From a bacterium (lineage in GTDB: Bacteria > Planctomycetota > Phycisphaerae > UBA1845): 48,122 nt of DNA. The number at the start of each line of letters is the position of its first letter. Position 1 is the first letter of the stretch. Shown here in pieces: positions 17,735-48,122 of this stretch. Where the stretch lies: contig JAAEQG010001482.1 of assembly GCA_024231775.1 (NCBI GenBank), forward strand, positions 1 to 48,122. Direction: 5' to 3'. Below the pieces are notes generated by a model. The model was not told the origin of the DNA. It saw only the letters and a program-made list of their open reading frames with translations, and ran no database searches. A program made the translations under genes and the position numbers.

Positions 17735-17744
17735 TGTTATAACA
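17735..17744. promoter_or_regulatory. perfect 10-bp A/T-rich palindrome TGTTATAACA (candidate transcription-factor site)
   Basis: Read directly. It sits in a local A/T-rich patch (gttttgttataacactatg) within the GC-rich 391-bp gap between the 13-haem and 19-haem genes, about 40 nt upstream of the TTGACA element. Confidence 0.25.
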
Positions 17745-17929
17745 CTATGCCGTTATGGGGAGAAACCGAAGCTGGGACGCCCCATCCGTGGGGAGCGTAG
17801 CGGGCCGGAGCCCACAGCACTTCGCGACGGAACCACCCTGCCCGTCCACACGACTCCGGTTCTGAAGCGAAGACGATGCCGTTGCCTGGACCCCAGACTC
17901 CGGCGTGCCATGGACTGTCGCAACGAACC

Positions 17930-20340: not shown

Positions 20341-20444
20341 TCTGAAACTCCTAGCCGCCAGGGGCTTCCCGGCTGATGTGGTCCCCAGCTGTAATGCCGC
20401 GTGCCCGCCAAGCCATCGGCGCAGCTACCCGCGGCGGCGATTAG

Positions 20445-26063: not shown

Positions 26064-26435
26064 GTTCTTTCTCCTTGCTGCGCCTGCGAACGCACGCCAC
26101 ACAGACCAGCGGATTCGGTCACACAACCGCGTCATACGTGTCCAGAGGAGGTGCATTCCCCGATGCGCTCATGCCATTGGCATGGGCGACCCGTCATCAG
26201 GCTCATTCTAGCGTCTCTGGACAGCGATATCGACGGCCTGACCTGATGCAGAGGGGGCATATTGCCACCCCTGCATCGTGCTGAGTTGCCGGCCGTTCGG
26301 AGAGGACGCTCACCCAGCACGCAGTAACACGGCGTATCAGGACGCGCCCGCACGGTCTCGACCCAACGGCTTGGGCGGCGTAGAATGAGCGGTGCGCGGT
26401 GGTGGAACCCAAACGCGTCGGATGGTGCGTCGAAT

Positions 26436-27323: not shown

Positions 27324-27325
27324 GC

Positions 27326-28441: not shown

Positions 28442-28551
28442 CACTCGTCGAGGCCAGATTGCGCAGTTTACCTCTCTTCTCTGACGTGTAACTCAAACCG
28501 CCTCAAAGGGTCCTCCATTCGCGGTGTAGCTGACTCCGCGGACTCCCTGGA

Positions 28552-28579
28552 TTGCTTCCGCACGCCGGCGCGGTAAGAT
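28552..28579 (+). promoter_or_regulatory. candidate sigma70-like promoter for citrate synthase
   Basis: TTGCTT (28552-28557), a 16-nt spacer, then TAAGAT (28574-28579), about 85 nt upstream of ATG 28664. Confidence 0.3.
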
Positions 28580-28663
28580 GAGGCTTCGTTTCGGCTGTGG
28601 CGTCCGCGCGGCGGGCCTGTCGACAAACACTATCTACTTCCACACTTCGCGAGGTGCCCCACC

Positions 28664-35972: not shown

Positions 35973-37418
35973 TCAGCTCCGCTCCACGTGGATGAGCTTG
36001 AGCAGCTCGCCGGCGGTGCGCACCAGCTTCGGATCGGTAGAGTGGTCTACGATCCAGCGGAAGTCCGAGATCGCGGAGTCGAATTCGCCAAGCAAGGCCC
36101 GGGCCTGCCCACGGCCATAGTAGGCATATCCGTAGTCGCCTTTGAGTTTGATCGCCTTGTTGTAGTCGGAGATAGCTCCGGAGTAATCGCCCCCTTCAGC
36201 CTTAGCGTCTCCGCGTCCACAATAGGCGTAGGGGTGGTCCGGTCTGAGCCGTATGACCTGGTTGAAGTCCGCAATCGCTCCGGAAAGGTCTCCGGTGGCT
36301 TCCTTGACGTCCGCCCGACCACAATAAGCGTCCGCATCGTCGGTGCGAGCTGCAATCACCTTGTTGAAATCGGCGATGGCCGCAGAGAGTTGGCCGGTCT
36401 CCTCCCGAGCACGTCCTCGTGCAAAGTAGGCGTCGGCGTCGTCGGGGTTCAGGCGAATCGCGGCGGTGTAATCCGCGATGGCACCCGCCAGATCACCCTT
36501 GGCCCGCTTGGCATCGGCCCGGTAGGAACGGGCCCGCGGGCTGTCTGCGCCCAGCTTGATGGCCTTGCCAAAATCGGAGATAGCCCCGGAGAGATCGCCC
36601 CTGAGCTTACGGGCGACCCCGCGACTGTTGTGCAACTCGATATCCATCGGATCCAGCCGGATGGCTCGCGTAAAATCGGTGATGGCTCCGGCGTAGTCCG
36701 CCATCTGCTGACGGGCTTGGGCGCGGTACTTGAACGCCTCGGCGTTCGGCGGATCCAGCCGAATCACCTCATCCAGATCGGCGATGGTTGCAGAATAATC
36801 ACCCAATGCGTACCGAGCTTTTCCCCGGCCCAAGAAGTACGGCGCCTGATCGGGCCGGAGGTTGATCGCCGCACCGAAGGCGTCAATCGCACCAGTTGGG
36901 TCGCCCGCGCCGAGCCTGGCGTCACCGAGCAGGGACAAGACCTGCGCATCCCGCGGGGCCCAGCGAGCGGCGGATTCGTAGTCTGCCAAAGCCAAGCCGG
37001 ATTGTCCGCTCTTGGAGTAAGCGTCCGCACGCTTGCGGTATAACTCAGCCTCCTCCGGGGCAGCTTCAATGGCCACCGTGTAGTCGGTCACCGCTCCGCC
37101 CAGGTCTTCGGATAGCAGGCGAAGATCACCGCGCCGCGCATACGCTTCGGCATGGTCGGGCTTCAGGACGATGACCTGATCCAACCGGGCAATCGCCCCG
37201 CGGGTGTCCCCGTACTTAGCAACCTCTTCGGCCTCCCTGAAGAGGCGAACACTGTCCGGGGCGGCTTCGACGAAGTGGGGGCGAACCTGGATGAAGACCG
37301 CGCCACCCAGTATCACCAGCACCGGGAGCATCATCCCGATCTTGAGCGCCGGCCTGATGGGCTGTTTCTTGATCTTCACGGAGAAGGTCGGTCGTTTGCC
37401 GTCTCTGTGTGGTCTCAT
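35973..37418 (-). CDS. membrane-anchored tetratricopeptide (TPR) repeat protein
   Basis: ATG 37418 is preceded by AGGAAG. One N-terminal TM helix (IGMMLPVLVILGGAVFI) is followed by about 12 consecutive 34-aa TPR units of the form GDLSGAIADFNQVIRLRPDHPYAYCGRGDAKAEG. Confidence 0.85.
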   Translation of the reverse strand: MRPHRDGKRPTFSVKIKKQPIRPALKIGMMLPVLVILGGAVFIQVRPHFVEAAPDSVRLFREAEEVAKYGDTRGAIARLDQVIVLKPDHAEAYARRGDLRLLSEDLGGAVTDYTVAIEAAPEEAELYRKRADAYSKSGQSGLALADYESAARWAPRDAQVLSLLGDARLGAGDPTGAIDAFGAAINLRPDQAPYFLGRGKARYALGDYSATIADLDEVIRLDPPNAEAFKYRAQARQQMADYAGAITDFTRAIRLDPMDIELHNSRGVARKLRGDLSGAISDFGKAIKLGADSPRARSYRADAKRAKGDLAGAIADYTAAIRLNPDDADAYFARGRAREETGQLSAAIADFNKVIAARTDDADAYCGRADVKEATGDLSGAIADFNQVIRLRPDHPYAYCGRGDAKAEGGDYSGAISDYNKAIKLKGDYGYAYYGRGQARALLGEFDSAISDFRWIVDHSTDPKLVRTAGELLKLIHVERS

Positions 37419-37606
37419 ACGCGCTTCCTGATAATGCCAGAGGTCGCCCACCGACTTCCCGGTGACTCAGTTGCTCCGCCGCGGCGACGCACGCAGCATT
37501 CTGGGGTCATTCCTCATCGGGATATCGGCGTGTACTGGCGTCCGGTTGATGAGAAGCCCGCGTGGCTATCGGACGCAGAGAGGCGTCGGCCACGCTGGTC
37601 GGAGCG

Positions 37607-40600
37607 TTATCGTCCGAACCACCGCCGCTTCTTGGTGGGACACTCTGAGGGCTCCTCATGGGTCTCACTGCAGGCCTGCTCGATCAGTTCGACAAGCGGG
37701 CGGCCCGCACCGCTCAGGCGACGGAGCATTTTGACCTTCGCCAGAGTCTCAGAATCCAATGAATCGAGGAGGGCCTCATCAGGGTCAGGTCCGGGCGGCG
37801 TCTCCGGCATCTGGTCATCTGGCCGATCAGGGGCCTCCTGCTGACTGTCCTTCCCAAGATCCGATGGTTCCGCCAGCTTGGTGGCTTGCGGAGCTGCCTG
37901 CTTCTTGCTGGGCATCCGTGCGTTGCCCTGCCCGGGAGCCCGCGGAGGTAGCATGACCACTTTCTTCACCTCGCCGGCGCTCGCCAGCGAATCCTCACCG
38001 GAGGCATCATTCGAGACCGGCGGATCACTCTCCGGACCGGACGACTCGGCATCGACGCGCGCATCCTCCGCGCCACCGGCCGTTTCCCTGCCGAAACTCT
38101 CTATGGCTTCATTAGCGTGGTGGAGTTCCACCTCGCGCTCGGTCAGCTTCTGGTTGAGCGCCTCCAACTCACTGCGCAGCTCTTCTGCGCGCGCGGAACT
38201 CTCCTCGGCGTCGGTGGCGCGCTCGCGCTCCTGACCCTCGACATCACCGATGCGCCGATCAAGGTCTTGCTCGAGGTCTTGCACGCTCCGCTGCTGCTCG
38301 GCGATCTGACCCTCTCGGGCCTGCAGCTCTGCTTCGGCTTGATCGAGCTTCTGCTCACGGATGCCCAGCGTTTTCTCTGCTTCCGCGGCTACTCGGTTCG
38401 CCGTATCGACCTGCTCTAAGCCCGCAGCGAGCTCGCGCTCACGTTCAGCCAAAGCTGACGCCTCGGACTCGAGCTCGGCACGTGAAGCCGAAGCCTCAGT
38501 GCCGTCCGCTTCTGCCTGACTCTTGGCGGTGAGGATCTCCTCCCGCTGGCGACGAAGCGCCTCCTGCTCCTCTGCAAGACGTCCCTGCAGATCGTTCAAC
38601 GCCGTCTGTTGTTCGGCCAGTTCAAGCTTCGTCTGTTCAAACTCGCACCGCTGGTCCTTGAGTTGGCGCTGCTGCTCGGCCATCTGCCGGCCACCGCTGT
38701 CGAGGGCAGCGGCGCGCTTCTCCAGCTCGCGCTCACGTTCAGCCAAGGCGGACGCCTTGGACTCGAGCTCGGCACGTGAAGCCGAGGCCTCAGCACCGTC
38801 CGCGTCTGCCTGACCCTTGGCGGTGAGGATCTCCTCCCGCTGGCGGCGGAGAGCATTCCGCTCCTCCTCAAGACGTCCATGCAGGTCTTTCAGCCCCGCC
38901 TGCTGTTTGGCGAGTTCAAGCTTCGACTGTTCAAGTTCACCAGCATGTGCGTCAAGTTCGCACCTCTGGTCTTTGAGTTGGCGCTGCTGCTCGGCTGACG
39001 CACGTTTCTCAGCCTCAAGATCCGCTTCCTGAGCTGCGTTCACCTCCCGAAGCTCATCCAATTCTCGGGTGCGCGTGTCCAGCACCTGCAGATCCTGTTC
39101 TTGCCGTCGATCGAATTGGTCCTGAAGTTTGGCGAGCTCAGCAGCTCTCTTCTGGAGGTCTTGCTCGGCCTGTTCCACCTGACGCCGAGCAACGTCCACC
39201 TCGCCAGACTCTTGTTCACCTGCCGCCGCACGAGCCTCAAGCACGGCTTCACGCTGGTGAAGCTCGTCGGCCTCCTTCCGCAGCGCGGACCGATCCGATT
39301 CACAAGCCTGGCGGTCCTGTTCGAGCTGCTCATACTGCTTCTTGAACCCCGCCCCCTGCTCGTGGCGTTCCAGCTCCCAGGTCTGACGAACAGCTTCGAG
39401 TTGACTGGCTTGGGATTCCAGTTGCTCACGCTCGTCGCGGAGAGCGGCTTCGCGCTGCTCCAGCCCAACCGCCACCTGGTTCGCCTCCTCGACGGCGATC
39501 TCCTGCTGGGCAACCCTCTTTCGGTGCTGTTCCTCCAGCCCCCTGCGCTCCCGTTGGGCTTCGACAAGGAGTGCCTCCCCAGCGCCGAGCTTCTCCTCCC
39601 GGGTGATCAGCTCAGCCTGCAGGTCTTCCACCTCCTGTTCGCCGCGTGCCAGATCCTGCTGGGCCTGTTCGCATTGCCTGAGTTGGGCGGCGAGGGTGCT
39701 CCGCATGTGGTTCTGCTCTGCCTCGCGCTCCTGCAGGTCAGCCCGGGACTGCTCCAAAGCAGCCTGCCCTGCCTCCAAAGCCAGGGCGCGATCTTGCAGA
39801 CTCTGAACTTCTTCGACGGCCGCCGAGCGCTGTTGATCCAGCTCCGCAAGCCCGGTGTCGAGCCTAGCTGCCCGCTCCTGGAACTCTGCCTCCTGAGCAC
39901 CAAACCGGGCAGCGAAGGAGGACTGTTCGGACTCCAGCTTGCGTCGGGCCTCTTCCAGGCGAGCGCAGTCCTCCGCAACTTGCCCCTGGCGATCCTCCAG
40001 CTCAACTTGTCTCGCGGAGTGACTCTCCGCATCCGCCGCTTGGCGCTGCTCGGCCTCCGCTACGGCGGTTTCTCGCGTCGCAAGATCTCGCTCCGACGCC
40101 GCCAGCCGCTCATTCAGCTCCGCAAGCTCTGCCTGCTGCCCGGTGAGACCGCTCTGCAAATCGACCGTACGCTTTTCGAGTTCCTGACGAAGCGCGTTCA
40201 ACTCCGCAAGGTCCGCCTCGTGAGTCTGACGCTGGGTATCGAGAGCCCGCTCCCGCTGCTCGAGCTCTTGGGCGAATTCGCGGGCGCGCCGGTCAGCCTG
40301 AGCCACCTCAGCTTCGCGCTGCTCGATATCGCTACGGGCGGCGGTCGCCCGGGCAAGCTGCTGATCGAGCGCCTCTTGCTTTTCCCGCTGCTCTTGGGCA
40401 GCTCGCTCCGCATCAGCACGCTGTTCTTCAAGCCTGGCCCTCAGTTGCTCGCCTTCGGCGCTACGAGAAGCCAATTGCTGCTTGAGCTCGTCCAGGGCCT
40501 GGGCTCGGGCCTCCAGCTCCGCGGTCTGATTTGCGATCCGGCATTCGCGTTCGTCCCCATGCTCGGAACAGCGCGACAGCGCCTCGCGGTCTTTCTGGAG

Positions 40601-41539
40601 AACCTCGTTCTCTGCCGCGAGCTTCCTGGCATCCTCTTCGAGTGAAACGTGGCGAGCTTCCAGCAGGTGCTCACGCTCCGTAGCCGCGTTCTCCCGGGCC
40701 TGGACTTCCCGCCGCGCTTCTTCAACACTGCGGCGATGTTGGTCCAGGTCCTCAAGCTGCCCGTCCAGGCGTTCCTCAATCAGGGTCAGGTCATCGCCCC
40801 GTCGGGCCAAGTCTTTGCCCTGGCTCTCGATGTCGGCGAGGCGACCTTGTAGCTGCGCCTCCCGAGAGTGCAGATCCTCGGTCTGACTGCAGAGCTCTGA
40901 CTCGCGCGCCTCCAGCTCAGCCCTTTGCTTCTCCACGCGAGCCTGAGTGTCCACCAATTCCGCCGCACTTTTCTCGCATTGCTCATCGCTCGACTTGCAC
41001 TCAGCCCGGGCAGCCTCCAAATCAGCGCGCTCGCGCTGCAGCTGCGCCCGCTCATCCTCCAGATCCTGCCGGCTCCGGGCCTGGTCCTCAAGTTGGCTCT
41101 TACGGCCGGCGTCAAGCGCCTCTAGTTCTTGATCCAACTGCTGGCGCTGCTGAACCAGGGCGGCTTCACTGGCTGCGCAGGCCTGATCGCGGGATTCAAG
41201 CTCCGCTTGTTTCAACCGGAGCTCATCCCGGGCGGCCTGAAGATCGCGCTGTCCGGCGGCCAACTCCGTGGTCTGTTGGTCGGTATCGATGGTGAGCCGG
41301 TCGAGATCGGCCTGCCGCGCGTCTAGCCGCGAACTCGTCTCCCCCAGGAGACCTTCCCATTGACTCGCCCCCTCGAAGGAATGGGTGAGCACTTCGCAGA
41401 CGGTCTGAATCTTGGCCTCGGCGTCTGCAAGCGCATCGGTGAGTTCGCGGTCACCCTGATCGTTCGGAGCGGCCGTATTGGTCTGGCACTCCGCCGCTGC
41501 ATTCGCGGCGGAGCGATCATCACGAGATCGCGGCGCCAT
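37607..41539 (-). CDS. giant coiled-coil protein (about 1310 aa, E/Q/R/A/L-rich) with Pro/acidic linker and short basic C-terminal helix
   Basis: A single uninterrupted ORF. Composition and heptad-like periodicity indicate a continuous coiled coil for about 1150 aa, followed by a disordered SGPESDPP..PETPPGPDPDE segment and LAKVKMLRRLSGAGRPLVELIEQ. ATG 41539 is preceded by GGGGGGA; the track GTG start is 41584. Confidence 0.8.
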   Translation of the reverse strand: MAPRSRDDRSAANAAAECQTNTAAPNDQGDRELTDALADAEAKIQTVCEVLTHSFEGASQWEGLLGETSSRLDARQADLDRLTIDTDQQTTELAAGQRDLQAARDELRLKQAELESRDQACAASEAALVQQRQQLDQELEALDAGRKSQLEDQARSRQDLEDERAQLQRERADLEAARAECKSSDEQCEKSAAELVDTQARVEKQRAELEARESELCSQTEDLHSREAQLQGRLADIESQGKDLARRGDDLTLIEERLDGQLEDLDQHRRSVEEARREVQARENAATEREHLLEARHVSLEEDARKLAAENEVLQKDREALSRCSEHGDERECRIANQTAELEARAQALDELKQQLASRSAEGEQLRARLEEQRADAERAAQEQREKQEALDQQLARATAARSDIEQREAEVAQADRRAREFAQELEQRERALDTQRQTHEADLAELNALRQELEKRTVDLQSGLTGQQAELAELNERLAASERDLATRETAVAEAEQRQAADAESHSARQVELEDRQGQVAEDCARLEEARRKLESEQSSFAARFGAQEAEFQERAARLDTGLAELDQQRSAAVEEVQSLQDRALALEAGQAALEQSRADLQEREAEQNHMRSTLAAQLRQCEQAQQDLARGEQEVEDLQAELITREEKLGAGEALLVEAQRERRGLEEQHRKRVAQQEIAVEEANQVAVGLEQREAALRDEREQLESQASQLEAVRQTWELERHEQGAGFKKQYEQLEQDRQACESDRSALRKEADELHQREAVLEARAAAGEQESGEVDVARRQVEQAEQDLQKRAAELAKLQDQFDRRQEQDLQVLDTRTRELDELREVNAAQEADLEAEKRASAEQQRQLKDQRCELDAHAGELEQSKLELAKQQAGLKDLHGRLEEERNALRRQREEILTAKGQADADGAEASASRAELESKASALAERERELEKRAAALDSGGRQMAEQQRQLKDQRCEFEQTKLELAEQQTALNDLQGRLAEEQEALRRQREEILTAKSQAEADGTEASASRAELESEASALAERERELAAGLEQVDTANRVAAEAEKTLGIREQKLDQAEAELQAREGQIAEQQRSVQDLEQDLDRRIGDVEGQERERATDAEESSARAEELRSELEALNQKLTEREVELHHANEAIESFGRETAGGAEDARVDAESSGPESDPPVSNDASGEDSLASAGEVKKVVMLPPRAPGQGNARMPSKKQAAPQATKLAEPSDLGKDSQQEAPDRPDDQMPETPPGPDPDEALLDSLDSETLAKVKMLRRLSGAGRPLVELIEQACSETHEEPSECPTKKRRWFGR
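38420..39000 (-). repeat. in-frame tandem duplication, 2 copies with a 294-bp (98-aa) period, inside the giant coiled-coil gene
   Basis: GCTCGCGCTCACGTTCAGCC recurs at 38431 and 38725. The protein copies both run QQRQLKDQRCE..LRRQREEILTAK.QA.ADG.EASASRAELES.ASALAERERELE. The upstream copy carries an 18-nt indel. Identity is high by eye but was not computed. Confidence 0.85.
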
Positions 41540-41878
41540 CGCTGTCCCCCCTGATCCAAGTGTTCCCCCCCTGCGCGTCCGCACTCGGCAGCGCGTACCG
41601 CGAGGTCACCTGAGAGTCTACAATTCAATCCTCAGCGAGGCAGACCGCCACCGCAGGAGCCTACCGGTCGATGAGTATCGGACGTTTGTGCCTGTGCGCA
41701 TCCGCACGGAGTGGGTTATCGAACCGAGCCCGCAGGTGATTGAAAGTCGCTGGGGATTATCACCGAAGTCTATCGTAGACTCGGACCGACAGCGCCTTCG
41801 CGCTTCGGGGGCGGTGGGTCCAAATACGGGGAGATCGGCTCGGGCATCACTCCTGCGAGCGAGTGCGGTCCAGGAAAC

Positions 41879-43072
41879 ATGCGTATGGCCGCATCCACTG
41901 AGACCGGATCACTGCCTGCCCAACCGCCTGATACGGCGGGACTGCAACGTGCGGGCGGTGACGCGCTGGCATCGATCCGGCGCGTCCAGGATCTGCTCCG
42001 CGCCCGTGGCACGGAGTTGGAAGCCCTGCGCGCCGAGCTATCAGATGAGCGAACCACTTTGAGTTCCGATCATGCCCGGCTTGAAACCGAGCGCGCCGCC
42101 TGGCACCAAGAGCAGAATAACGCCCGCAACGTCTTGGGAGAACGTGAAGAGACCGTCGCCACCGAACACCAGCGCCTTGCCGACCGGGAGTGCGAGCTAG
42201 AGGCTCAACATCTCGAGGTGAGCGCAGCGCAAGAAGCGACCGAGCAGTCCAGAACAGAGCTCGCCGAGCGCCAGCGCCAGCTGGCCGACCTGCAACGATC
42301 CGTCGAAGCGAGCGCGGCGACTTGTGTGGAGCAGGAGACCGCCCTGAGCACCCGAGGCGAGGAGCTGGAAGCAACCGCCGCGAAGCTTGCTGCCGATGAG
42401 CAGCGGATGGCTGACCTCCGCAGTGCGGTGCAGCACGATCGTGGTGAGCTTCAGCGCACCGAGAGCGAACTGGAGACTGAGCAAGTCCGACTCACGGAGC
42501 TGGCCGCCACGCTGGAAGACCACCAGACAGACACGGTGCGGGAACGACAACAGGTTGAGTCCGCTCGCCAGGATCTGGAGAGCATGCAGACAGCGTTAAG
42601 CCAATCTCGCGAATCCATCGAGCGCCAAGAGGCGGACCTCGCAAACGCAGATGAGGCTCTGCGGAAGCGTACAAGCGAACTGGAGGAGCTCGAGGATTCC
42701 GTCGGGGAGCAAACCCGTACGCTGCAACAGCGTGAAGCCGCCGTCCAGGGCGCGACGCAGGAAGCAGAAGCCAAACTGAAGGAGGCTGACTCCATCCGCG
42801 AGGGCATGGCAACGCTTCAGGCCCAGTTGGAGCGCGAGCGCCATGAAGTCGCCCAGCAGCGTCAGGAGCTCATGAGGCAACTGGGAGCCCTCCCGGAGTC
42901 GATCGCCGAGGAAGATTCAACCGCGCCGGCGGACGAGCCGGCGATGTCGGTCGAGGACCCAAAAGCGCCGGAAGCGCCCGCCGAGCCCGCCCCTCCAGCG
43001 GTGACGTCGGCGGCGGAGCGGATGCGCAAACTACGTCGCGATGCCAAGCGCCGAGCGATGGGCGGAATGTAG
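41879..43072 (+). CDS. coiled-coil protein (397 aa) with Pro/acidic linker and basic C-terminal helix
   Basis: ATG is preceded by AGGAAA. It has the same E/Q/R/A/L-rich heptad-like composition as the divergent giant gene. It ends ..PKAPEAPAEPAPPAVTSAAERMRKLRRDAKRRAMGGM. Confidence 0.75.
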   Translation: MRMAASTETGSLPAQPPDTAGLQRAGGDALASIRRVQDLLRARGTELEALRAELSDERTTLSSDHARLETERAAWHQEQNNARNVLGEREETVATEHQRLADRECELEAQHLEVSAAQEATEQSRTELAERQRQLADLQRSVEASAATCVEQETALSTRGEELEATAAKLAADEQRMADLRSAVQHDRGELQRTESELETEQVRLTELAATLEDHQTDTVRERQQVESARQDLESMQTALSQSRESIERQEADLANADEALRKRTSELEELEDSVGEQTRTLQQREAAVQGATQEAEAKLKEADSIREGMATLQAQLERERHEVAQQRQELMRQLGALPESIAEEDSTAPADEPAMSVEDPKAPEAPAEPAPPAVTSAAERMRKLRRDAKRRAMGGM

Positions 43073-43147
43073 GCGCGGTCGGGATTTGCGCATCGGTCCC
43101 CGAACCAGTGCACCAAGACCGGGCTCGTCGGAGAACTAGGTAGACAG

Positions 43148-44155
43148 ATGACGATACGACACCTCTTCAGAAAGCGGCCGACCAGCGCGACCTCCCTGGC
43201 GTCGGACGATCCAGTCATGCAGCGCGATCGAACGGCGCGCGAGGAGTACGTACCCGCTGCACATGAGGCGCTGGAGGATGACCCCCTGAAGCAGCTTTGG
43301 CAGCAGCAACGGTACGCTGTCATTGTCACTCAGGCTGAGCGCTGGAAGACGCATCCGGCGGCGGACGCCATCGTCACCACAGCACGCGAGAAGCTGGATG
43401 GGCATCTCGCCCTCGTACCCGAGGGGATTGTCGCCCTCCCCAGTTCGCTGGACGACAGCGTGGGGGCGGAGGAACGCGACGAGCACATCAAACCCTTCCT
43501 ATTGGACATTTGCACAGTCTCGAACGAACGGTTCCAGCGCTTCGTCGACGCCGGCTGCTACGACGAACTGGAGATCTGGCCTCGGGAGATCTGGCCACAC
43601 CTGATCGAGATGCAGGATCTGACCGGCGAACCCGGACCTCGGTTCTGGAGAGGCGGGAGGCACGACCAGCGTCTCGCCAGTCATCCGGTGGTGGGGGTGA
43701 GCGTGTATGAAGCCCAGGCGTTCGCTCGGTGGGCAGGCCAGCGCCTGCCCACCGAAGCGGAGTGGCAGATGGCCGCCAGTTGGCACCTCAAGAGCGAAGC
43801 CAACATCCTGCGGCGGTTTCCCTGGGGCGACGCCATGGACCAGACCCGCTGCAACGTCTGGGCATCGCGCAAAGGCGGAACAGTGGCCGTGCATGAGTAT
43901 CCCAAGGGTGCGGCCCCCAACGGCGTGCTCCAATTGATCGGCAATGTGTGGGAGTGGACCGCATCGGAGTTCGAGATCACCGATTTCTCCGGCAATCCAG
44001 TTTTGGGCGAGATGCCCATGCGCAGCGTGCGCGGCGCAGCCTTCGACACCTACTTTGAATCGCAGGCGAACAGCCTGTTTCGCACGGGGCAGATCGCCAT
44101 GGGACGCACACACCACACCGGATTCCGCTGTGCCCTCGATTTGCCAGAGTCCTGA
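43148..44155 (+). CDS. FGE-sulfatase (SUMF1/EgtB/PvdO) fold protein lacking the FGE catalytic cysteine pair
   Basis: VSNERFQRFV, HPVVGVSVYEAQAFARWAGQRLPTEAEWQ, FPWGD, GNVWEWT, VRGAAF and HTGFRCALD are the canonical FGE-sulfatase blocks. There is no Cys between RGAAF and GFRC, where human FGE has its two catalytic Cys residues. Confidence 0.8.
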   Translation: MTIRHLFRKRPTSATSLASDDPVMQRDRTAREEYVPAAHEALEDDPLKQLWQQQRYAVIVTQAERWKTHPAADAIVTTAREKLDGHLALVPEGIVALPSSLDDSVGAEERDEHIKPFLLDICTVSNERFQRFVDAGCYDELEIWPREIWPHLIEMQDLTGEPGPRFWRGGRHDQRLASHPVVGVSVYEAQAFARWAGQRLPTEAEWQMAASWHLKSEANILRRFPWGDAMDQTRCNVWASRKGGTVAVHEYPKGAAPNGVLQLIGNVWEWTASEFEITDFSGNPVLGEMPMRSVRGAAFDTYFESQANSLFRTGQIAMGRTHHTGFRCALDLPES

Positions 44156-44163
44156 CGTAACGT

Positions 44164-45066
44164 GTGGTGGAGAGATGTGACGTGAGCACTGCACCCGAGA
44201 CGGCAACTGAATCGGCCTACTGCCTGATCTGCGAGCGCGAGAACCCAGACGCGGCGGTACTCTGTGCCCACTGCTATGCGCCGATGGCGCTCATTCACGA
44301 TGCCATCCGCCAGGATCGTGAACCCTGCATCATCAGCGTGATTGGCGACAGCAACGTGGGCAAGACGGTCTACCTGGGATTCCTACTGGACATGCTCTCC
44401 AAGCGTGCCGGCGACTTCGAGGCGGTTCCCAAAGGAGCCTATTCGGTCAACCTCCAGCAAACGGTAATCGGTAGCCTCCAGCAACGGGTGTTTCCGCCGA
44501 AGACTCCCAATGAGGCCGATCAATGGCACTGGGCCTACTACCAGGTGGCCCGCCGGGCGAAGAACGCCGCCTGGTTCGACTTGGTGATGCCGGACATGGC
44601 GGGCGAAGCGCTGGCCGCCGAGGTCGAGTCGCCCAAGACGCACGCGGTCATCCGCAGCTTGCTGAGCAAAACCGCCGGCTGCCTGGTACTTGTCGATGCC
44701 GCCGCAGCCGCGTTGGGCTCCTCTCATCCGGACCTGTTCGGTCTCAAGCTGATGACCTATCTCGACCAGATGTTCGCCCAGAAACGAGGGCAGCGGATCT
44801 ACAATCCTGTGGCGGTGGTGCTCTGCAAGGCAGACTATTGCCCACAGTCCTTTGAGAACCCGCGCGGGTTTGCCCAAACGAATCTCAATCGAGTGTGGAA
44901 CATCTGCGAGAGTCGTTTCGCCAATGTCGAGTTCTTCGCCACCAGCATCATCGGGGCGCTGGGGTTCAGCAGTGACGACGACGGAAACGTCGTCCCGATT
45001 CCTCTGCACGGCGCACCGCGCGGTATATTGGAGCCGTTTGAATGGATCCTCAGTTGCCTGGAGTAA
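44164..45066 (+). CDS. zinc-ribbon-fused TRAFAC-class small GTPase
   Basis: N-terminal CLIC-x10-CAHC zinc ribbon (44221-44274). G1 is VIGDSNVGKT (44344-44367), G3 is LVMPDMAGE, G4-like is VVLCKAD and G5-like is FATSIIG. GTG start lies 8 nt after the FGE-fold gene stop; 300 aa. Confidence 0.8.
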   Translation: MVERCDVSTAPETATESAYCLICERENPDAAVLCAHCYAPMALIHDAIRQDREPCIISVIGDSNVGKTVYLGFLLDMLSKRAGDFEAVPKGAYSVNLQQTVIGSLQQRVFPPKTPNEADQWHWAYYQVARRAKNAAWFDLVMPDMAGEALAAEVESPKTHAVIRSLLSKTAGCLVLVDAAAAALGSSHPDLFGLKLMTYLDQMFAQKRGQRIYNPVAVVLCKADYCPQSFENPRGFAQTNLNRVWNICESRFANVEFFATSIIGALGFSSDDDGNVVPIPLHGAPRGILEPFEWILSCLE

Positions 45067-46454
45067 GCCCGACCGGCGCAGGCACGCCCCATGCATCCGT
45101 GCCCTGTGAACAGGCGATCTTCACTTCCGTGCGTACCGCCATGGGGCAGGGCTATCGGCTGATCGCCTCCAGCCCCGGGCTAACGCCGGAGGAAAAGACC
45201 GAGATCACCAAGCGCAGCCCGTCACATGGTGGGCTGTGCAACGCGGATAACGGCTCGGCGGTGGCCTTCTACCCGCTGCCGGGCGGACGCTTATGCGCCG
45301 CGCTGTCCTGCGCTGCCGGGCAAGAGCAGTCCGGTCGGGGAGGGCTGCGCATCTACACCCGTGCCGCCGTGTTGGACCGATCGTCCTTCGACAAGTTCGC
45401 GGGCAATCCACTCAACGTACTCAGAGCCCTGGAGCAGAGCGGGTTGGCGACGCCCGACCTCGAACCCGCCAAAACACTTCCGGTGGTTCACCTAGCCCCC
45501 GACGCACGCTGTCGCTCCGACGAGACTCTCGAAGCCCTTGACCGGGTGGGCCGTGACTGGCTGATCTTCATGCTCCAAGCGGCGCTAGCGGAGCGGCGCG
45601 TGATTCTGGCGGGTACCGACGATCCTCTGGTACTTATTGAAGCTGTGCTGCTGGGGCTTCCGAACTCTGTGCGCGAGAGCGTGTCGTTCGCCAGCGGTCT
45701 GACTTTCTCGATCGGTCGGGCGTTTACACTGACGGCCGTAAGTGGTGACACCCGGGGGATAGAACGAATCATCCGCGGCCACCCGCTCGCCCTGGTCCAC
45801 CCGCAAGCCCATACGCCACCACCTCCGCTTGAACTGGGTGAATGGAGCCGGATGGTGACGGAGTACTGGAACGAATCCGCCCACGTGGAGCTGGCCAGAT
45901 TCACTGGCGAAGCGTTTGAAGATTGCTCGCCGGAAGCTCTGGAGCGGGTCGCCGCCCTGCGAAACGAAACCAGCCGCGCATCAGTATCCGGAGCGGCAGA
46001 GCTCCTGGTCCTGGCCCTGCGCCGAGTTACCCAAGGAACTGCGGACGGGCTGGAGAACCGCCTGCTAGCCGACCTGCTCAGCACGATCCGCATGCGCTTG
46101 CAGCGCATCTGGTCCACGGCTGGGCAACAGGAGCTGGTCCAGGAGTGGCCTGCGCTGGTCGATCTGGTACGCAAGTCGCCCCTGGCGTTCCAGCACCTAA
46201 CTCCATTGGTCGGCTTGGTGCTTACTCGCCTGGCGATCACGACTCCGCTTAAGGCGATGGAGTATGCCCTGGAAATCGCCGGTGATCCGATGGTGAGAAC
46301 CCTGGAGAGTGAATTGGACAACGTGGCGGAGGCGGTGGAGGCACAACAGCCTCAGGCGGACTCCGGACAGACCCGGCTGGCCAATAAGCTGCTCGACAAG
46401 TGGCGGACGGCGTTCCCACACCTGCCGAGTTCGTCCGTTGCGATTCGCACATAG
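45042..46454 (+). CDS. GTPase-associated protein 1 (GAP1)-like protein, uncharacterised
   Basis: 470 aa. The N-terminus EQAIFTSVRTAMGQGYRLIASSPGLTPEEK ... GQEQSGRGGLRIYTRAAVLD resembles, from memory, the QLYYTS..G.GFQ..A.S.G ... SGR.GN...HALV pattern of GAP1 N-terminal domains. The ATG overlaps the GTPase gene by 25 nt; an alternative GTG lies at 45099. Confidence 0.6.
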   Translation: MDPQLPGVSPTGAGTPHASVPCEQAIFTSVRTAMGQGYRLIASSPGLTPEEKTEITKRSPSHGGLCNADNGSAVAFYPLPGGRLCAALSCAAGQEQSGRGGLRIYTRAAVLDRSSFDKFAGNPLNVLRALEQSGLATPDLEPAKTLPVVHLAPDARCRSDETLEALDRVGRDWLIFMLQAALAERRVILAGTDDPLVLIEAVLLGLPNSVRESVSFASGLTFSIGRAFTLTAVSGDTRGIERIIRGHPLALVHPQAHTPPPPLELGEWSRMVTEYWNESAHVELARFTGEAFEDCSPEALERVAALRNETSRASVSGAAELLVLALRRVTQGTADGLENRLLADLLSTIRMRLQRIWSTAGQQELVQEWPALVDLVRKSPLAFQHLTPLVGLVLTRLAITTPLKAMEYALEIAGDPMVRTLESELDNVAEAVEAQQPQADSGQTRLANKLLDKWRTAFPHLPSSSVAIRT

Positions 46455-46471
46455 GATGCCGGGGGCAACGG

Positions 46472-47176
46472 CTAGCCCGCCAACGCCGCCAGCGCCGCGC
46501 TGACGTACTTCGAGGATCGCTCGATCCGTGCGGGGAAACTCGAGGCGACCTCCGCAAGATGGCCGTAATGGGCTGCGCCGGCCTTAACCTCGATGATGAT
46601 CCGGTCCGCCACCGGAGTGGCCCGGTGCAAGTTCGGGATTGTGGAGCGGAACTGGTCAAAGACAGCCAGATCCCGGTCCACGGTGACCCGGACCGTACGG
46701 TCCGCCGAAGAGTAGTACATCCGCCGATAGCATATCAGCACCGTCGGACAGCATCGTTCGTCCAACCGGACACGCCACCCGCCCGGAAGCTGGCGGCGGA
46801 GCTGACCAAGCACGGCGGACCATGTAGTGTGTTCAAGCTGGACGGGTGCGGCGAGCACATGCTGCCGCTTGTCTCCCAGTCCACCCCGCTTGAGCTTCAA
46901 CTCCATCGTTGGCGGAGCGGACGGGCACCGCTCGCCGTACCACCTCAGCCTGAGTTTGCAGCGCGAAGACACGCCCGCCAGATTGTCATTAGCACTGTGC
47001 AGCTCCGGGGTATCGAAGTAGATACTGTTGACCTCTCGCGGCGGATACGCCTTGGAAAACGCCGCGGGATGAAGGCGAAGCCAGGCCCGCACGGTGGCAA
47101 GACGATCACGGCGAACCACGAGCTTGAGTTCGTAGCGCTCACCGCCAGTACCCCCCACCACCGAGTCACCGAGCAT
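46472..47176 (-). CDS. VTC-domain (polyphosphate polymerase/CYTH-like) protein
   Basis: ERYELKLVV.., REVNSIYFDTPEL, KLRLRWYG, TMELKLKRG, ICYRRMYYSS, RVTVDRDL, IIIEVK and SKYVSA follow the VTC/CYTH beta-barrel pattern. Start is uncertain: ATG 47176 gives 234 aa, and the alternatives are GTG 47296 or the track start at 47371. Confidence 0.7.
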   Translation of the reverse strand: MLGDSVVGGTGGERYELKLVVRRDRLATVRAWLRLHPAAFSKAYPPREVNSIYFDTPELHSANDNLAGVSSRCKLRLRWYGERCPSAPPTMELKLKRGGLGDKRQHVLAAPVQLEHTTWSAVLGQLRRQLPGGWRVRLDERCCPTVLICYRRMYYSSADRTVRVTVDRDLAVFDQFRSTIPNLHRATPVADRIIIEVKAGAAHYGHLAEVASSFPARIERSSKYVSAALAALAG

Positions 47177-47300
47177 ACGGGAAACCGCCGTCCGGGGCGA
47201 AGGTCGGACCGGAACGCACGGCTTGGTCTCTACAGAACAGCCCGTGCCGGTTGCGCTGTCGGTCTCGTCAGCTACAAGTAGGGTGCCTTCGTCCACGCGG

Positions 47301-48122
47301 CTAGTTCTCCGCAGTCCGCCGAGCGTACAGTGTGGCGACGTCCAGCTCAGTAGCGTCCTGGGCAATGCCATTCAACTGCACTGAGGAACCCGTCTGGGCG
47401 AGCACGGTCTGCATCGTGTCCGCAAACTGGACGTTACGCGCAACGACACTCGCCGGTCCGTGTACGGGTTTCTTGACGTAGGCTGCAAGACCGATCCGGG
47501 CGTGGCGGATCATCGAGTCGGCAAGCTCCACCGAGGATGAGTCCTTGCTGGCGATGGCGATGCCGGCTTGGTCAATGGTCACACGCGATGCGGTGACCAC
47601 GCTCCTTTCGCCAGAGGAGATGACCTTGTCGACAACTCGCTCTGCCCTCAGATCCAGGATGCGCAGTCGGCTGCCGCTGACGTCCACGGCATCCCCTCCT
47701 ACGTCAGCGAACCGGCAGCGCTTCACGGCTCCGGTCACGTAGTCACCGTCGAACGCATCCGCAGCGCAGTTCTCGAAAACGCAGTCCTCGAGTTCCACCA
47801 CGCCGTGAATGATGTTGAGCGCGTCTTCGGACGTGTTGTCCAGGAAGGTCACCCGGGCAAGGTGGGCATCGCACCGGTAGAAAGTCACCCCTCCGGTTAG
47901 CATCCAACCCCCACGCTGAATTGGAGACGTGCCCTTGACCACGACGCTCTCCCACTCAGAAACCTCGGCAGCTGCGGACACGACCACCCCGCCCCAAGTC
48001 TTGCCCTGCGGTTCCAGCACGATAGGACTCTGGGGGTCGCCGTTCATGCCGACTGGACCCGTCGCATAGAGCACGGCGCCGGGCGCGAAGCGCAGAGTCG
48101 TTGCCGAGTCGATCTCCAGGCC
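47301..48122 (-). CDS. right-handed parallel beta-helix repeat protein; 5' end beyond the right edge
   Basis: The frame stays open upstream of the track's GTG 48074 to the window end (..GLEIDSATTLRFAPGAV-LYATGP..). Repetitive short strands such as VTFLDNTSEDALNI, LEDCVFENCAADAFDGD, CRFADVGGDAVDVSGS and VTIDQAGIAIASKD are typical of pectate-lyase-like beta-helices. Confidence 0.6.
   Translation of the reverse strand, partial: GLEIDSATTLRFAPGAVLYATGPVGMNGDPQSPIVLEPQGKTWGGVVVSAAAEVSEWESVVVKGTSPIQRGGWMLTGGVTFYRCDAHLARVTFLDNTSEDALNIIHGVVELEDCVFENCAADAFDGDYVTGAVKRCRFADVGGDAVDVSGSRLRILDLRAERVVDKVISSGERSVVTASRVTIDQAGIAIASKDSSSVELADSMIRHARIGLAAYVKKPVHGPASVVARNVQFADTMQTVLAQTGSSVQLNGIAQDATELDVATLYARRTAEN

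Follow-up and report, generated by a model that had tools for sequence, protein, structure and literature searches.

Organization of the locus

The window, by which we mean the whole 48,122-nt stretch of DNA that was analyzed, contains a candidate operon encoding a short coiled-coil protein (CC-S), an FGE-fold protein, a zinc-ribbon GTPase and a GAP1-N2 protein, with a long coiled-coil protein (CC-L) and a TPR protein encoded divergently (Table 1). On re-reading the sequence, we found these six ORFs, the GTPase motifs, and a 15-nt palindrome where a preliminary description of this DNA had placed them. Its domain calls also held, with Pfam FGE-sulfatase, DO-GTPase1/2, and GAP1-N2 all scoring above curated cut-offs. 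Within the operon, the reported 8-nt gap between the FGE and GTPase genes and the 25-nt GTPase/GAP1 overlap stand, whereas the gap between the CC-S and FGE genes measures 75 nt rather than 76. The divergent intergenic region, previously given as 340 bp, is 339 bp if CC-L begins at its ATG and 294 bp if it begins at GTG. Because the GTPase gene overlaps the GAP1-N2 gene, the two are probably translationally coupled; relatives keep both the gene order and an overlap of 22–25 nt, in support of the proposed operon. Elsewhere in the 48-kb window all genes are of metabolic or housekeeping type, and no tRNA or mobile genes were detected.

Table 1. Genes, motifs, and domains of the locus, with positions in the window
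Feature	Position	Strand	Description
TPR protein	35973-37451	-	ORF, 492 aa
CC-L, long coiled-coil protein	37607-41584	-	ORF; 1325 aa from GTG, ~1310 aa from next ATG (41539)
CC-L C-terminal tail	37610..37819	-	last ~70 aa, LDxET..K(M/L)LRRL....ELIxQ....KKRRWFGR; shared by relatives
Internal duplication in CC-L rod	38430..38971	-	~294 nt (98 aa); two 248-nt copies, 82% identical, spacing 294 nt
Box 1, upstream of CC-L	41612..41628	-	reads GAATTGTAGACTC on - strand; same motif as box 2, opposite orientation
Box 2, ~100 nt upstream of CC-S	41767..41782	+	conserved box; contains palindrome AGTCTATCGTAGACT
CC-S, short coiled-coil protein	41879-43072	+	ORF, 397 aa; operon gene 1
CC-S C-terminal tail motif	43010..43069	+	conserved pattern (..ERMRKLRRDAKRRAMGGM)
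FGE-fold protein	43148-44155	+	ORF, 335 aa; Pfam FGE-sulfatase
Lost FGE Cys-pair site	44030..44065	+	R295-G-A-A-F-D300-T301-Y-F-E-S-Q306; alignment to 5nxl
GTPase, zinc-ribbon DO-family TRAFAC	44164-45066	+	ORF, 300 aa; 294 aa with alternative start 44182
Zinc ribbon CxxC-x10-CxxC	44221..44274	+	C20, C23, C34, C37; invariant in 23 diverse relatives
G1 / P-loop GDSNVGKT	44344..44367	+	residues 61-68; G61, G66, K67 invariant; T68 >=90%
G3 / Walker B	44593..44607	+	D144-M-A-G147-E148; >=97% conserved; Glu = family hallmark
G4 C-K-A-D	44824..44835	+	residues 221-224; K222, D224 >=90% in diverse relatives
GAP1-N2 protein	45042-46454	+	ORF, 470 aa; 25-nt overlap with GTPase gene
GAP1 N-domain	45099..45437	+	residues 20-132; longin-like topology in two models
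GAP1 middle alpha/beta domain	45486..45797	+	residues 149-252; DENN-core-like in model
GAP1 C-terminal all-helical domain	45840..46412	+	residues 267-457; model; poorly conserved

A DO-family GTPase and a GAP1 protein of longin and DENN-like predicted fold

A single GTPase, a zinc-ribbon member of the DO-GTPase family, serves as the switch of the module; it matches Pfam DO-GTPase1 (44.6 bits) and DO-GTPase2 (40.9 bits; cut-off 27). Across 81 orthologues its motif residues, other than C221, are invariant or at least 97% conserved; at C221 distant relatives carry T, giving TKAD. A G5-like motif is formed by F258..S261..G264, and a profile search against PDB sequences showed the zinc ribbon to be similar to RanBP2-type zinc fingers. 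DO-GTPase and GAP1 "GTPase-centric systems" were defined by Kaur et al. (2020; PMC7159879), the Aravind-group survey to which the preliminary description had correctly referred. That study names a conserved Walker B Glu among the features of the family and reports N-terminal zinc ribbons on 60% of DO-GTPases, two GTPases in 38% of systems (hence one in the rest), and FGS-linked versions in planctomycetes. The core trio of FGE, GTPase, and GAP1 proteins is already catalogued computationally as a "conflict system". The earlier suggestion of an undescribed arrangement was overstated, as a single GTPase with a zinc ribbon is covered by Kaur et al. (2020) and only the paired coiled-coil proteins lie outside that description. 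The supposition in the preliminary description that no member had been studied experimentally agrees with our literature search, which found no experimental work on any DO-GTPase/GAP1 system.

The protein encoded downstream matches GAP1-N2 (41 bits; cut-off 24), as do 15/15 orthologues tested, and weakly matches GAP1-M (14 bits). It evolves faster than the GTPase (median identity 32%), and its invariant residues (G37 Y38 R39, G93 E95 R99 G100 R103 T106) are concentrated in the N-domain, where two models show the element order two strands, helix, three strands, two helices. The AF2 model of the protein has a pLDDT of 85.8 and pTM of 0.80; the values for the N and middle domains (N+M) are 87.0 and 0.88. 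Foldseek searches with the N+M model identified TagF (9t0n, E 2.4e-4), folliculin (6nzd_H, 4.7e-4), DENND10 (8p0v_M, 3.5e-3), and FNIP2 (6ulg_N, 2e-2), and the Lst4 longin domain (4zy8) matched GAP1 with probability 0.96 and rmsd 4.6. These top matches have probabilities of 0.85–0.99, with the next at 0.28 or below, and are distant (TM 0.25–0.45). The modeling suggests that the N and middle domains adopt a longin+DENN-like fold similar to that of eukaryotic DENN/folliculin GTPase regulators; DENN, longin, and folliculin sequence profiles gave no match to the GAP1 protein. The C-terminal domain is missing from the chemosensory (Che)-linked clade described below, whose GAP1 proteins are 220–256 aa.

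An FGE-fold protein with an altered catalytic site

The FGE-fold (FGS) protein scores 131.7 bits against Pfam FGE-sulfatase (cut-off 23.3), and among proteins of solved structure it is closest to the OvsA/EgtB FGE-like domains, pFGE (SUMF2), and FGE. In an alignment to T. curvata FGE (5nxl), 'flC-hesyC' becomes 'fdtyfesQ', with the Cys pair replaced by D300/T301 and Q306. The protein had been called Cys-less, which is true of the catalytic pair; cysteines are present elsewhere. Inspection revealed no N-terminal hydrophobic signal, and by sequence we predict a cytoplasmic, catalytically dead protein. Median identity over 77 orthologues is 54%, with numerous invariant Trp residues. R295, G296, A298, D300, T301, Y302, F303, and Q306 are at least 97% conserved, and the motif RGGAFDSYFESQ is retained even in a distant locus (L086). 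The protein keeps an invariant surface at the former catalytic-cysteine site; in contrast, DGR-type FGS domains are hypervariable in this region.

Coiled-coil proteins and a shared DNA box

Conservation of CC-S and CC-L lies mainly in short, basic helices at the C terminus of each protein. Nearly every related locus, in all three clades, has a CC-S-type ORF whose end immediately precedes the FGE gene. Its near-invariant tail, [Q/R]F[R/Q]KL[R/Q]RDAKR[R/K], occurs as the strict pattern in 92 of 114 loci and as variants in most others, against a background of ~10 in 6694 other ORFs. A divergent CC-L orthologue of 800–1600 aa with the same C-terminal tail is present in 49 related loci, and most Phycisphaerae loci retain CC-L; the tail (consensus LDxET..KL(K/R)xLRRLNPxKS..ELLxQI..KK(K/R)xWF) is the sole part clearly common to the relatives compared. 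The duplication in the CC-L rod is consistent with rod length varying among relatives. Searches of CC-L against Pfam returned no family, and SMC/Rad50/JetC-type matches of both proteins are of coiled-coil level only, far below cut-offs.

The same DNA box lies upstream of both divergent transcription units. Many loci retain box 1 in the form AAGT(C/G)TACATTTC. Of 45 loci, 32 carry the core of box 2, TATCGTA, and in each it is on the + strand (consensus GTATCGTAGGCTTG). Of the 85 genome-wide matches to the shared box in 1.11 Mb, 46 lie within the 1-kb intergenic region, split between the + strand (24) and the - strand (22). The inverted repeat described earlier, AGTCTA-TCG-TAGACT, is exactly at 41767-41781 and unique in the window (0.01 matches expected in shuffled sequence). 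It is not conserved as a hairpin; it lies inside a block, CACCGAAGTCTATCGTAGACTCGG, common to L004 and L006, and each of these relatives breaks one arm. The palindrome is the form that a conserved promoter-proximal box takes in this genome. Given the CC-S tail motif, the recurrence of the CC-L tail, and the shared box, both coiled-coil proteins can be assigned by sequence to the module, CC-S as a core part.

Conservation and genomic context

The five-gene module is real and widespread in Phycisphaerae. Mining of gene neighborhoods showed that the FGE–GTPase–GAP1 order extends beyond this genome to every one of ~160 related loci, wherever the contig allows, with one module copy per locus among those compared. 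A relative is encoded in 457 GTDB species genomes; the best 80 of these all come from Phycisphaerae/Planctomycetota MAGs, each a different assembly, and GTPase identity across these species is 57–89%. A search for GTPase homologues gave 830, of which the best 120 share at least 62% identity. The family is small, forming 247 clusters at 50% identity among 1.84 billion representatives. Flanking genes vary among relatives and are housekeeping in nature (e.g., LpxD, ABC transporters); no defense or mobile genes were found near the module in the 48-kb window or the relatives' neighborhoods examined. What appears new here is the constancy of gene order, CC-S as a core part, the retention of CC-L, the shared box, the longin+DENN-like fold, and a Che linkage.

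That linkage is seen in a Pirellulales-like sister clade, where in 13 loci the module closes a chemotaxis-like cluster encoding CheW, an MCP, a CheA-CheY hybrid, a PATAN-receiver response regulator, and an FHA+coiled-coil protein. No such linkage was found in the window or within +/-9 kb in 83 Phycisphaerae loci, and it may be confined to a single clade.

The TPR protein, whose gene lies downstream of CC-L, is a possible accessory restricted to a subclade. Genes of 481–490 aa occupy the same position in L004, L006, L008, L011-L013, and L015, and not in other loci. The protein has strong TPR Pfam matches and, by inspection, one N-terminal hydrophobic helix that would anchor it to the membrane.

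Interpretation of the module

We favor, at a probability of roughly 0.55, a conserved Phycisphaerae GTPase switch module that organizes coiled-coil scaffolds in the cell rather than an immune system. The only published interpretation is that of a conflict system, by authors whose survey covered far more DO-GTPase systems (PMC7159879). In such an anti-invader role, GAP1 and the GTPase would form a threshold switch, the FGS protein would bind an invader molecule and neutralize or report it, and the coiled-coil proteins would build a superstructure blocking spread. For planctomycete GAP1-N2 systems FGS domains are indeed listed among the effectors, and for DO-GTPase systems multimerizing effectors are predicted (Kaur et al., 2020; PMC7159879); strong conservation, moreover, does not strictly preclude immunity. 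However, the weak JetC/LmuB-type PADLOC matches of both coiled-coil proteins reflect composition only (8–30 bits against profiles of 560–1470 positions), and PADLOC returned no match for the FGE, GTPase, or GAP1 proteins. Hallmarks that these authors give are also missing, namely a variable effector set, an FNIII-repeat protein, and membrane-spanning core parts, and the copy number is one per locus. The FGS protein is invariant exactly where DGR-type domains vary, the housekeeping neighbors differ among relatives, and in the sister clade the module lies inside a chemosensory operon. The anti-invader possibility raised in the preliminary description thus gained nothing from PADLOC, from variable parts, or from defense or mobile neighbors, and we regard it as unlikely.

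A role in FtsZ-independent planctomycete division, with the GTPase and its regulator placing or remodeling a coiled-coil assembly at the division site, is more doubtful still. It would suit a single-copy module strongly conserved in Phycisphaerae, with relatives in Pirellulales-like genomes, that joins a GTPase with long coiled-coil proteins, but the neighbors examined include no dcw-cluster genes and no link to division genes, the family is small, and the Che-like context of the sister clade favors polarity or motility. We consider it very improbable that the FGE-fold protein is an enzyme (e.g., sulfoxide-synthase-like or an oxidase) served by the GTPase as a maturation or metal-delivery factor, with unrelated coiled-coil genes. 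Its solved relatives and partial NCBIfam matches to EgtB and SenA point that way, yet the EgtB and SenA matches do not extend beyond the FGE-like domain and fall far below the cut-offs (108 against 360 bits and 96 against 420 bits); the iron-binding N-terminal domain of EgtB/SenA-type enzymes is absent and the copper-binding Cys pair of FGE is lost. The coiled-coil genes, moreover, are conserved in the module and have a promoter box in common. The GTPase is a TRAFAC DO-GTPase, and known metallochaperone GTPases belong, to our knowledge, to a different class.

For the favored scaffold-organizing switch, we propose that the longin platform of GAP1 binds the GTPase and sets its nucleotide state. 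Folliculin is a GAP that uses an arginine, and DENN proteins are exchange factors; GAP1 could act like the former through invariant R39, R99, or R103, or alternatively like the latter. The FGE-fold protein would be a non-enzymatic adaptor or sensor within the complex, on which the CC-S and CC-L tails would dock, and CC-L may touch the membrane through its basic W-F end. Through GAP1 control of the GTPase and tail docking, the GTP/GDP state would set the place or time of coiled-coil scaffold assembly. The module behaves, we infer, like a housekeeping switch for cell organization. The earlier analogy to tether, GTPase, and GEF-like logic gains support from the modeled GAP1 fold, the conserved coiled-coil parts, and the constancy and strong conservation of the module. 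The output is likely to be cell polarity, positioning of a motility apparatus, or division, processes that elsewhere are governed by chemosensory pathways with PATAN regulators and small GTPases.

A conserved five-part module in Phycisphaerae

All six open reading frames (ORFs) that the preliminary description had placed around a divergent intergenic region were found in position (see table). A short coiled-coil protein (CC-S), a protein with an FGE-sulfatase fold (FGS domain), a GTPase, and GTPase-associated protein 1 (GAP1) are encoded in this order on the plus strand, with spacings of 75 and 8 nt followed by a 25-nt overlap between the last two genes. Because the next gene downstream, encoding a VTC-domain protein, lies on the opposite strand, this unit ends at 46454. 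A long coiled-coil protein (CC-L) is transcribed divergently and is followed, after a gap of 155 nt, by the gene for a membrane-anchored TPR protein with one N-terminal hydrophobic helix. A TPR gene of equal size occupies the same position in only seven relatives, the closer ones, and may represent a clade-specific accessory.

Positions of the module, its regulatory boxes, and other features of the window
Feature	Position (nt)	Strand	Basis or remark
Multiheme cytochrome c cluster	12580-21428	-	
Apparent methylcitrate-cycle genes	26385-29941	+	
TPR protein	35973-37451	-	ORF
CC-L	37607-41584	-	ORF
Internal duplication in CC-L	38430-38971		
DNA box copy, GTAG[G/A]CTT core	41612-41628	opposite orientation to the other copy	motif comparison, loci L004-L083
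DNA box copy, GTAG[G/A]CTT core	41767-41782	opposite orientation to the other copy	motif comparison, loci L004-L083
CC-S	41879-43072	+	ORF
FGE-fold protein	43148-44155	+	ORF, Pfam
GTPase	44164-45066	+	ORF, Pfam
GTPase residues 15-44	44206-44295		PDB profile search
GAP1-like protein	45042-46454	+	ORF, Pfam
293-aa ORF, probably spurious	46400-47281	+	opposite to the two ORFs below
VTC-domain protein	46472-47371	-	83.9 bits
Right-handed beta-helix protein	47301-48074	-	

Homologues of the GTPase number 830 in a set of 5.8 billion proteins; the best 120 of these share 62-89% identity, and those that are named come from Phycisphaerae or Planctomycetota metagenome-assembled genomes (MAGs). An exhaustive HMMER scan of 1.84 billion representatives yielded 247 clusters at 50% identity, and the family is therefore small. 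When GTDB was scanned at one genome per species with a query alignment of seven GTPase sequences, 457 species genomes contained a relative. The best 80 of the 457 derive from 80 different assemblies, all Phycisphaerae/Planctomycetota except three labelled "uncultured bacterium." Wherever the contig permits, these loci retain the order FGE-GTPase-GAP1, with one copy of each gene per locus, and both the order and the conserved CC-S tail described below persist in a further 80 loci obtained by scanning metagenomes with more distant GTPases. Gene-neighborhood mining across about 160 loci thus bears out the gene order remarked on in the preliminary description. The composition of the module is equal across these loci, and only the presence of CC-L, TPR, and chemotaxis-like (Che) genes varies, by clade. 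In Phycisphaerae, the five-part composition (CC-S, FGE-fold protein, GTPase, GAP1, and CC-L) is conserved. The related sequences all come from metagenome assemblies and their gene starts are approximate. The GTPase and GAP1 genes overlap by 22-25 nt in relatives as well. Measured against the window, the median identities are 64% (GTPase), 54% (FGE-fold protein), and 32% (GAP1). One distant locus (L085, 4995-9731) encodes the small coiled-coil protein, an FGE-fold protein of 411 aa, and the GTPase, with an RNase HII-like gene replacing GAP1; in this lineage, GAP1 may be encoded elsewhere or be dispensable.

The core trio and its catalogued relatives

Profile searches agreed with all three domain calls of the preliminary description, each scoring above the curated Pfam cut-off. 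The GTPase matches DO-GTPase1 at 44.6 bits and DO-GTPase2 at 40.9 bits (PF19975/PF19993; cut-off 27), the FGE-fold protein matches FGE-sulfatase at 131.7 bits, and GAP1 matches GAP1-N2 at 41 bits (cut-off 24). NCBIfam returned nothing useful for these three proteins, and no family in PADLOC-DB 2.0 matches any of them.

Kaur, Burroughs, Iyer, and Aravind (eLife 2020, PMC7159879) defined both DO-GTPases and GAP1. In their account, DO-GTPases are a TRAFAC family with a Walker B glutamate, present in two copies in 38% of systems; 60% of them bear N-terminal zinc ribbons, one or two, and usually two in GAP1-N2 systems. GAP1 comprises three domains (N, M, and C) and occurs in N1 and N2 types, and an FGS-domain protein is explicitly noted for planctomycete versions. 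The core trio has therefore already been catalogued computationally as a biological conflict system, and the suggestion in the preliminary description that the arrangement is undescribed does not hold for these three genes. It does hold for the coiled-coil partners: the paper makes no mention of these, of chemotaxis genes, or of DENN, longin, or roadblock folds in this context. Our literature search, in which this survey and a single passing mention were all that surfaced, found no experimental work on any DO-GTPase/GAP1-N2 member.

The locus resembles the catalogued systems in having a GTPase of the same family with a Walker B glutamate and zinc ribbon, a GAP1-N2 protein encoded directly downstream, and an FGS protein. 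It differs in lacking an FNIII-repeat component, variable effectors, and transmembrane parts in its core. A further difference is that the GTPase bears one zinc ribbon, a single CxxC-x10-CxxC that is invariant in the alignment of relatives, where two are usual for GAP1-N2 systems. It is also a single ORF in every locus, with no two-paralogue arrangement. Its motifs comprise G1 GDSNVGKT, G3 DMAGE (D144-x-x-G147-E148), G4 CKAD, and a FATS...G stretch. Across 81 orthologues, D144-x-x-G147-E148, G1 GxxxxGKT, and G4 xKxD are either invariant or conserved at 97% or more; the cysteine of CKAD becomes threonine in distant relatives, and the remaining motif residues are invariant or nearly so. Thr114, which is followed by an invariant WxW, is probably the switch-I threonine. 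A profile search against PDB sequences found no solved relative of the GTPase, returning P-loop-level matches to FtsY and ABC proteins (E ~0.02) and a zinc-finger match. The latter aligns residues 15-44 with RanBP2-type zinc fingers that recur in a large protein from a eukaryote (9hcj), at a whole-sequence E of 1.7e-5 summed over six repeats that are each weak singly. This likeness probably reflects a common small zinc-ribbon pattern and no specific kinship.

The FGE-fold protein, encoded directly upstream of the GTPase, matches its PDB relatives at E values of 1e-17 to 1e-22. It had been called "Cys-less"; the protein does contain cysteines, and what is absent is the catalytic copper-binding cysteine pair of FGE (FGE/SUMF1). 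In an alignment to the Thermomonospora curvata enzyme (5nxl), "flC..hesyC" corresponds to "fdtyfesQ," and the pair is replaced by D300/T301 and Q306, which are invariant in the family. The catalytic residues of FGE have been lost, and the surface that replaces them is invariant, exactly where DGR-linked FGS domains vary. Matches to EgtB, OvoA, and SenA cover the FGE-like domain only, with no full-length match that includes the N-terminal iron-binding domain, and synthase-family scores are low (108 bits vs a cut-off of 360; 96 vs 420). We take the protein to be cytoplasmic because inspection revealed no N-terminal hydrophobic segment. The families matched include pFGE/SUMF2 and the T9SS ring protein PorK/GldK, which likewise keep the FGE fold without catalytic cysteines and use it for binding or as a structural element. 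They are, however, secretory or periplasmic proteins, whereas the protein here lacks a signal peptide and its gene lies beside that of a cytoplasmic GTPase.

A predicted longin and DENN-like architecture for GAP1

The GAP1-N2 domain was recovered in all 15 orthologues tested (best E 4.9e-14). GAP1-M matches weakly (14.1 bits vs a cut-off of 24; 2 of the 15 orthologues), and GAP1-C has no Pfam match. An AlphaFold2 model built on the 15 orthologues (pLDDT 85.8, pTM 0.80) nevertheless shows a middle alpha/beta domain and a helical C-terminal domain. In this model, residues 20-132 follow the longin order of two strands, a helix, three strands, and two helices. A small alpha/beta domain comes next, at residues 149-252, and helices make up the rest.

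Foldseek comparison of the whole model with the PDB ranked folliculin, DENND10, TagF, and folliculin again at the top. Residues 17-262 modeled separately (pLDDT 87.0, pTM 0.88) matched TagF (9t0n; E 2.4e-4, probability 0.99), folliculin (6nzd_H; E 4.7e-4, 0.85), DENND10 (8p0v_M; E 3.5e-3, 0.91), the Lst4 longin domain (4zy8; E 1.6e-2, 0.96), and FNIP2 (6ulg_N; E 2e-2, 0.85). The next matches were unrelated beta-barrel proteins at probabilities of 0.28 or below. The prediction for GAP1 is thus a confident model whose best matches are DENN-family proteins. TM-scores for these matches are low (0.25-0.45), and none of the DENN, uDENN, longin, or folliculin Pfam profiles matches the 15 orthologues, even at E values up to 10. 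For both reasons we treat the similarity as distant and do not assume homology: the N and M domains of GAP1 look like a longin plus DENN-like pair in the model, whether through homology or convergence.

The likeness to longin plus DENN regulators (folliculin-FNIP/Lst7-Lst4, DENND proteins, and C9orf72-SMCR8) includes a predicted longin topology followed by a small alpha/beta domain, pairing with a GTPase, and invariant arginines in the longin-like domain; unlike the partners of those regulators, the GTPase of the module is not of the Rab, Arf, or Rag type. The best single match to the N and M model is bacterial, namely TagF, a type VI secretion regulator (PDB 9t0n and 6iz8), with which GAP1 shares about 10% sequence identity; no type VI secretion genes were found here. 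To our knowledge, TagF is not paired with a GTPase.

Invariant residues of GAP1 concentrate in the longin-like domain, at G37-Y38-R39, where strand 2 begins, and around the loop that joins strands 4 and 5 (G93, E95, R99, G100, R103, and T106). Folliculin, NPRL2, and SMCR8 all draw their catalytic arginine finger from the longin domain (PMC12290439), which makes R39, R99, and R103 candidate catalytic arginines. The predicted fold leads to a concrete hypothesis, in which GAP1 would have GAP or GEF activity involving these named arginines. Zhang et al. (2012, PMC3521125) described DENN and d-DENN domains exclusively as parts of the eukaryotic DENN module. If GAP1 were truly homologous to DENN proteins and folliculin, the origin of that module would be placed among bacteria, and the similarity would bear on the origin of eukaryotic GTPase regulators.

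Coiled-coil partners and a common DNA box

An ORF of 160-440 aa encoding CC-S lies almost always directly upstream of the FGE-fold gene. Its rod is poorly conserved and ends in a near-invariant helix, [Q/R]-F-[R/Q]-K-L-[R/Q]-R-D-A-K-R-[R/K]-A-I-G. The strict pattern was found in 92 of the 114 loci with enough upstream sequence, against a background of about 10 in 6694 other ORFs, and most remaining loci carry obvious variants, such as QMRKLRRDAKRR in the window. Because its basic amphipathic helix contains an invariant aspartate, this tail probably makes a specific contact with a protein rather than simply binding membrane.

CC-L is encoded divergently upstream in 46 loci. Its orthologues span 800-1600 aa, indicating a rod of rapidly changing length and a constant tail, and the rod in the window contains an internal duplication of 294 nt (98 aa) at 82% identity. 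The tail has two parts, LDxET..KL(K/R)xLRRLNPxKS..ELLxQI and a basic stretch ending in W-F. Subclades with the CC-S tail FQKLCRDAKRR or ALMKLRRDVKRR have no CC-L at the divergent upstream position. Database matches of the two proteins, to JetC/LmuB in PADLOC and to HmpF in NCBIfam (30-43 bits vs a cut-off of 200), reflect coiled-coil composition only.

Upstream of CC-S lies a one-sided DNA box, GTATCGTAGGCTTG, always on the operon strand (45 loci) and about 100 nt from the gene in the window. A second box nearer CC-L, AAGT(C/G)TACATTTC, is the same motif in the opposite direction (reverse complement GAAATGTAGACTT). Loose matches to the motif number 85 in 1.11 Mb of Phycisphaerae loci, 46 of them within the 1-kb intergenic stretch, where the two strands carry 24 and 22. 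From this distribution we infer a putative common promoter or regulator-binding element that may couple the two divergent units. A consensus scan for promoters and terminators returned sites no more numerous than in shuffled sequence. The preliminary description pointed out a palindrome between the divergent coiled-coil genes. It is exact, occurs nowhere else in the window, and sits inside a block common to the two closest relatives (L004 and L006). Each of these relatives breaks one arm, and we therefore rejected the idea of a conserved hairpin or operator palindrome; what has been conserved is the one-sided box.

A chemosensory link in a sister clade

In a Pirellulales-like sister clade, the module is linked to Che-like genes. 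The same strand encodes CheW, an MCP, a hybrid CheA-CheY, a response regulator with receiver and PATAN (DUF4388/PatA_N) domains, an FHA plus coiled-coil protein, and a small coiled-coil protein, with FGE-GTPase-GAP1 last (L086 1-10665, L087, L088, L094, L095, L113, and others). This cluster is at least partial in 13 loci and complete in several. The clade includes a Rubripirellula MAG, and L113 carries DUF1570, a domain typical of planctomycetes. CC-L's place is taken by the FHA-coiled-coil protein, whose two-part tail reads ..F-R-E-H-L-K-E-I.. then ..S-R-L-A-x-L-W-R-R-L. GAP1 is only 220-256 aa long in this clade and is missing the C-terminal helical domain; the minimal unit therefore does not include that domain. 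In a third clade, the FGE-fold protein is larger and Che genes are absent. Genes for CheA, CheW, MCPs, and response regulators were found neither in the window nor within +/-9 kb of the module in 83 Phycisphaerae loci.

Cyanobacterial PATAN response regulators act on the type IV pilus motor and set polarity (bioRxiv 10.1101/2021.06.11.447907; PMC11181946). The sister-clade set of MCP, CheW, hybrid CheA, PATAN-receiver protein, and coiled-coil protein is the same as that of the chemotaxis-like Hmp/Tax systems of cyanobacteria, which include the coiled-coil protein HmpF. We know of no GTPase, GAP1, or FGE-fold protein in those systems. A second parallel is MglA-MglB(-RomR) of Myxococcus xanthus, in which a small GTPase and a roadblock-type regulator set cell polarity (PMC6785124, PMC11016934, PMC3521125). 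The logic of a small GTPase with a regulator on a roadblock/longin-type platform is the same, but MglA-MglB differs in GTPase family and in regulator architecture, and no Che genes adjoin the Phycisphaerae module. In Myxococcus, MglA-MglB lies downstream of the Frz chemosensory pathway, and the sister-clade module similarly adjoins a Che-like cluster.

Functional interpretation

We favor a cell-biological GTPase switch as the reading of this locus, at a probability of roughly 0.55. In such a switch, GAP1 would regulate the nucleotide state of the GTPase, the FGE-fold protein would act as an adaptor or sensor, and the coiled-coil tails would dock on the GTPase/GAP1/FGE complex; the output would be spatial organization, be it of polarity, the motility apparatus, or division. 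An anti-invader function ranks second. The trio was catalogued in that context, but we consider the function unlikely here: the hallmarks named by Kaur et al. (variable effectors, FNIII sensors, membrane parts, and multiple systems per genome) are all absent, and the FGS domain is invariant at the positions that vary in its DGR-linked counterparts. On these two grounds we rank the cell-biological switch above it. No variable effectors differ between close relatives among the roughly 160 loci, and no rapidly evolving FNIII-repeat protein was found in the module or the 48-kb window; unlike a diversifying conflict system, the module evolves like a housekeeping one. The preliminary description had also raised placement in a defense island, which the surroundings speak against. 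No integrase, transposase, or defense gene was found in the 48-kb window, and the genes flanking the module differ among relatives and are ordinary ones, such as those for LpxD, ABC transporters, and EamA. The sole FNIII-related match in the window, an Fn3_assoc domain, belongs to a GH20 enzyme that is encoded 9 kb from the module and is unrelated to it.

A more specific proposal is a role in FtsZ-independent division. Planctomycetes divide without FtsZ by an unknown mechanism (PMC12673574), and because of this and their unusual cell organization, a GTPase-plus-scaffold module is a reasonable candidate for division or cellular organization. Nothing at this locus ties the module to division, however, and we regard that particular role as quite improbable. 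Returning to the cell-biological switch, its most detailed version would be a bacterial counterpart of eukaryotic GTPase-regulator logic. Here the DO-GTPase, switched by a DENN-like GAP1, would use the conserved C-terminal helices of the two coiled-coil proteins to recruit or release them, and the catalytically dead FGE-fold protein would serve as adaptor. The assembly would set polarity, placement of the motility apparatus, or FtsZ-independent division, with PATAN-type chemosensory input in some lineages. We offer this version tentatively, with a low expectation that it holds as a whole.

The DO-GTPase/GAP1 family is known from a computational survey alone and was filed there under biological conflict. 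The locus in the window and its roughly 160 relatives represent a version that behaves like a conserved cell-biological module with defined extra parts. These are two coiled-coil proteins with recognizable candidate docking motifs and a common putative promoter box, neither of which figures in the description by Kaur et al., and, in the sister clade, a direct genomic link to a chemosensory cluster. Relative to the known trio, what is new lies in these parts, in the fold assigned to GAP1, in the link to chemosensory genes, and in the way the module evolves.

Other features of the window

The window contains only metabolic and housekeeping genes, among them TilS, glycosyltransferases, sugar-nucleotide enzymes, citrate/methylcitrate enzymes, and a GH20 hexosaminidase. 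Scans of the window found no tRNA, Rfam family, or tandem repeat. Two genes converge on the end of the operon, encoding the VTC-domain protein (triphosphate-tunnel/polyphosphate-related) and a right-handed beta-helix protein whose ORF overlaps the VTC ORF by 71 nt. In the multiheme cytochrome c cluster, two of the cytochromes (681 and 957 aa) carry fused membrane domains of the cytochrome b561 type, and a third has 406 aa; genes for an NrfD-like membrane protein and a 4Fe-4S protein come next. The cluster looks like a respiratory or extracellular electron-transfer module. Elsewhere, a PEP-mutase/isocitrate-lyase-family gene followed by two citrate-synthase-family genes suggests a methylcitrate-cycle set.
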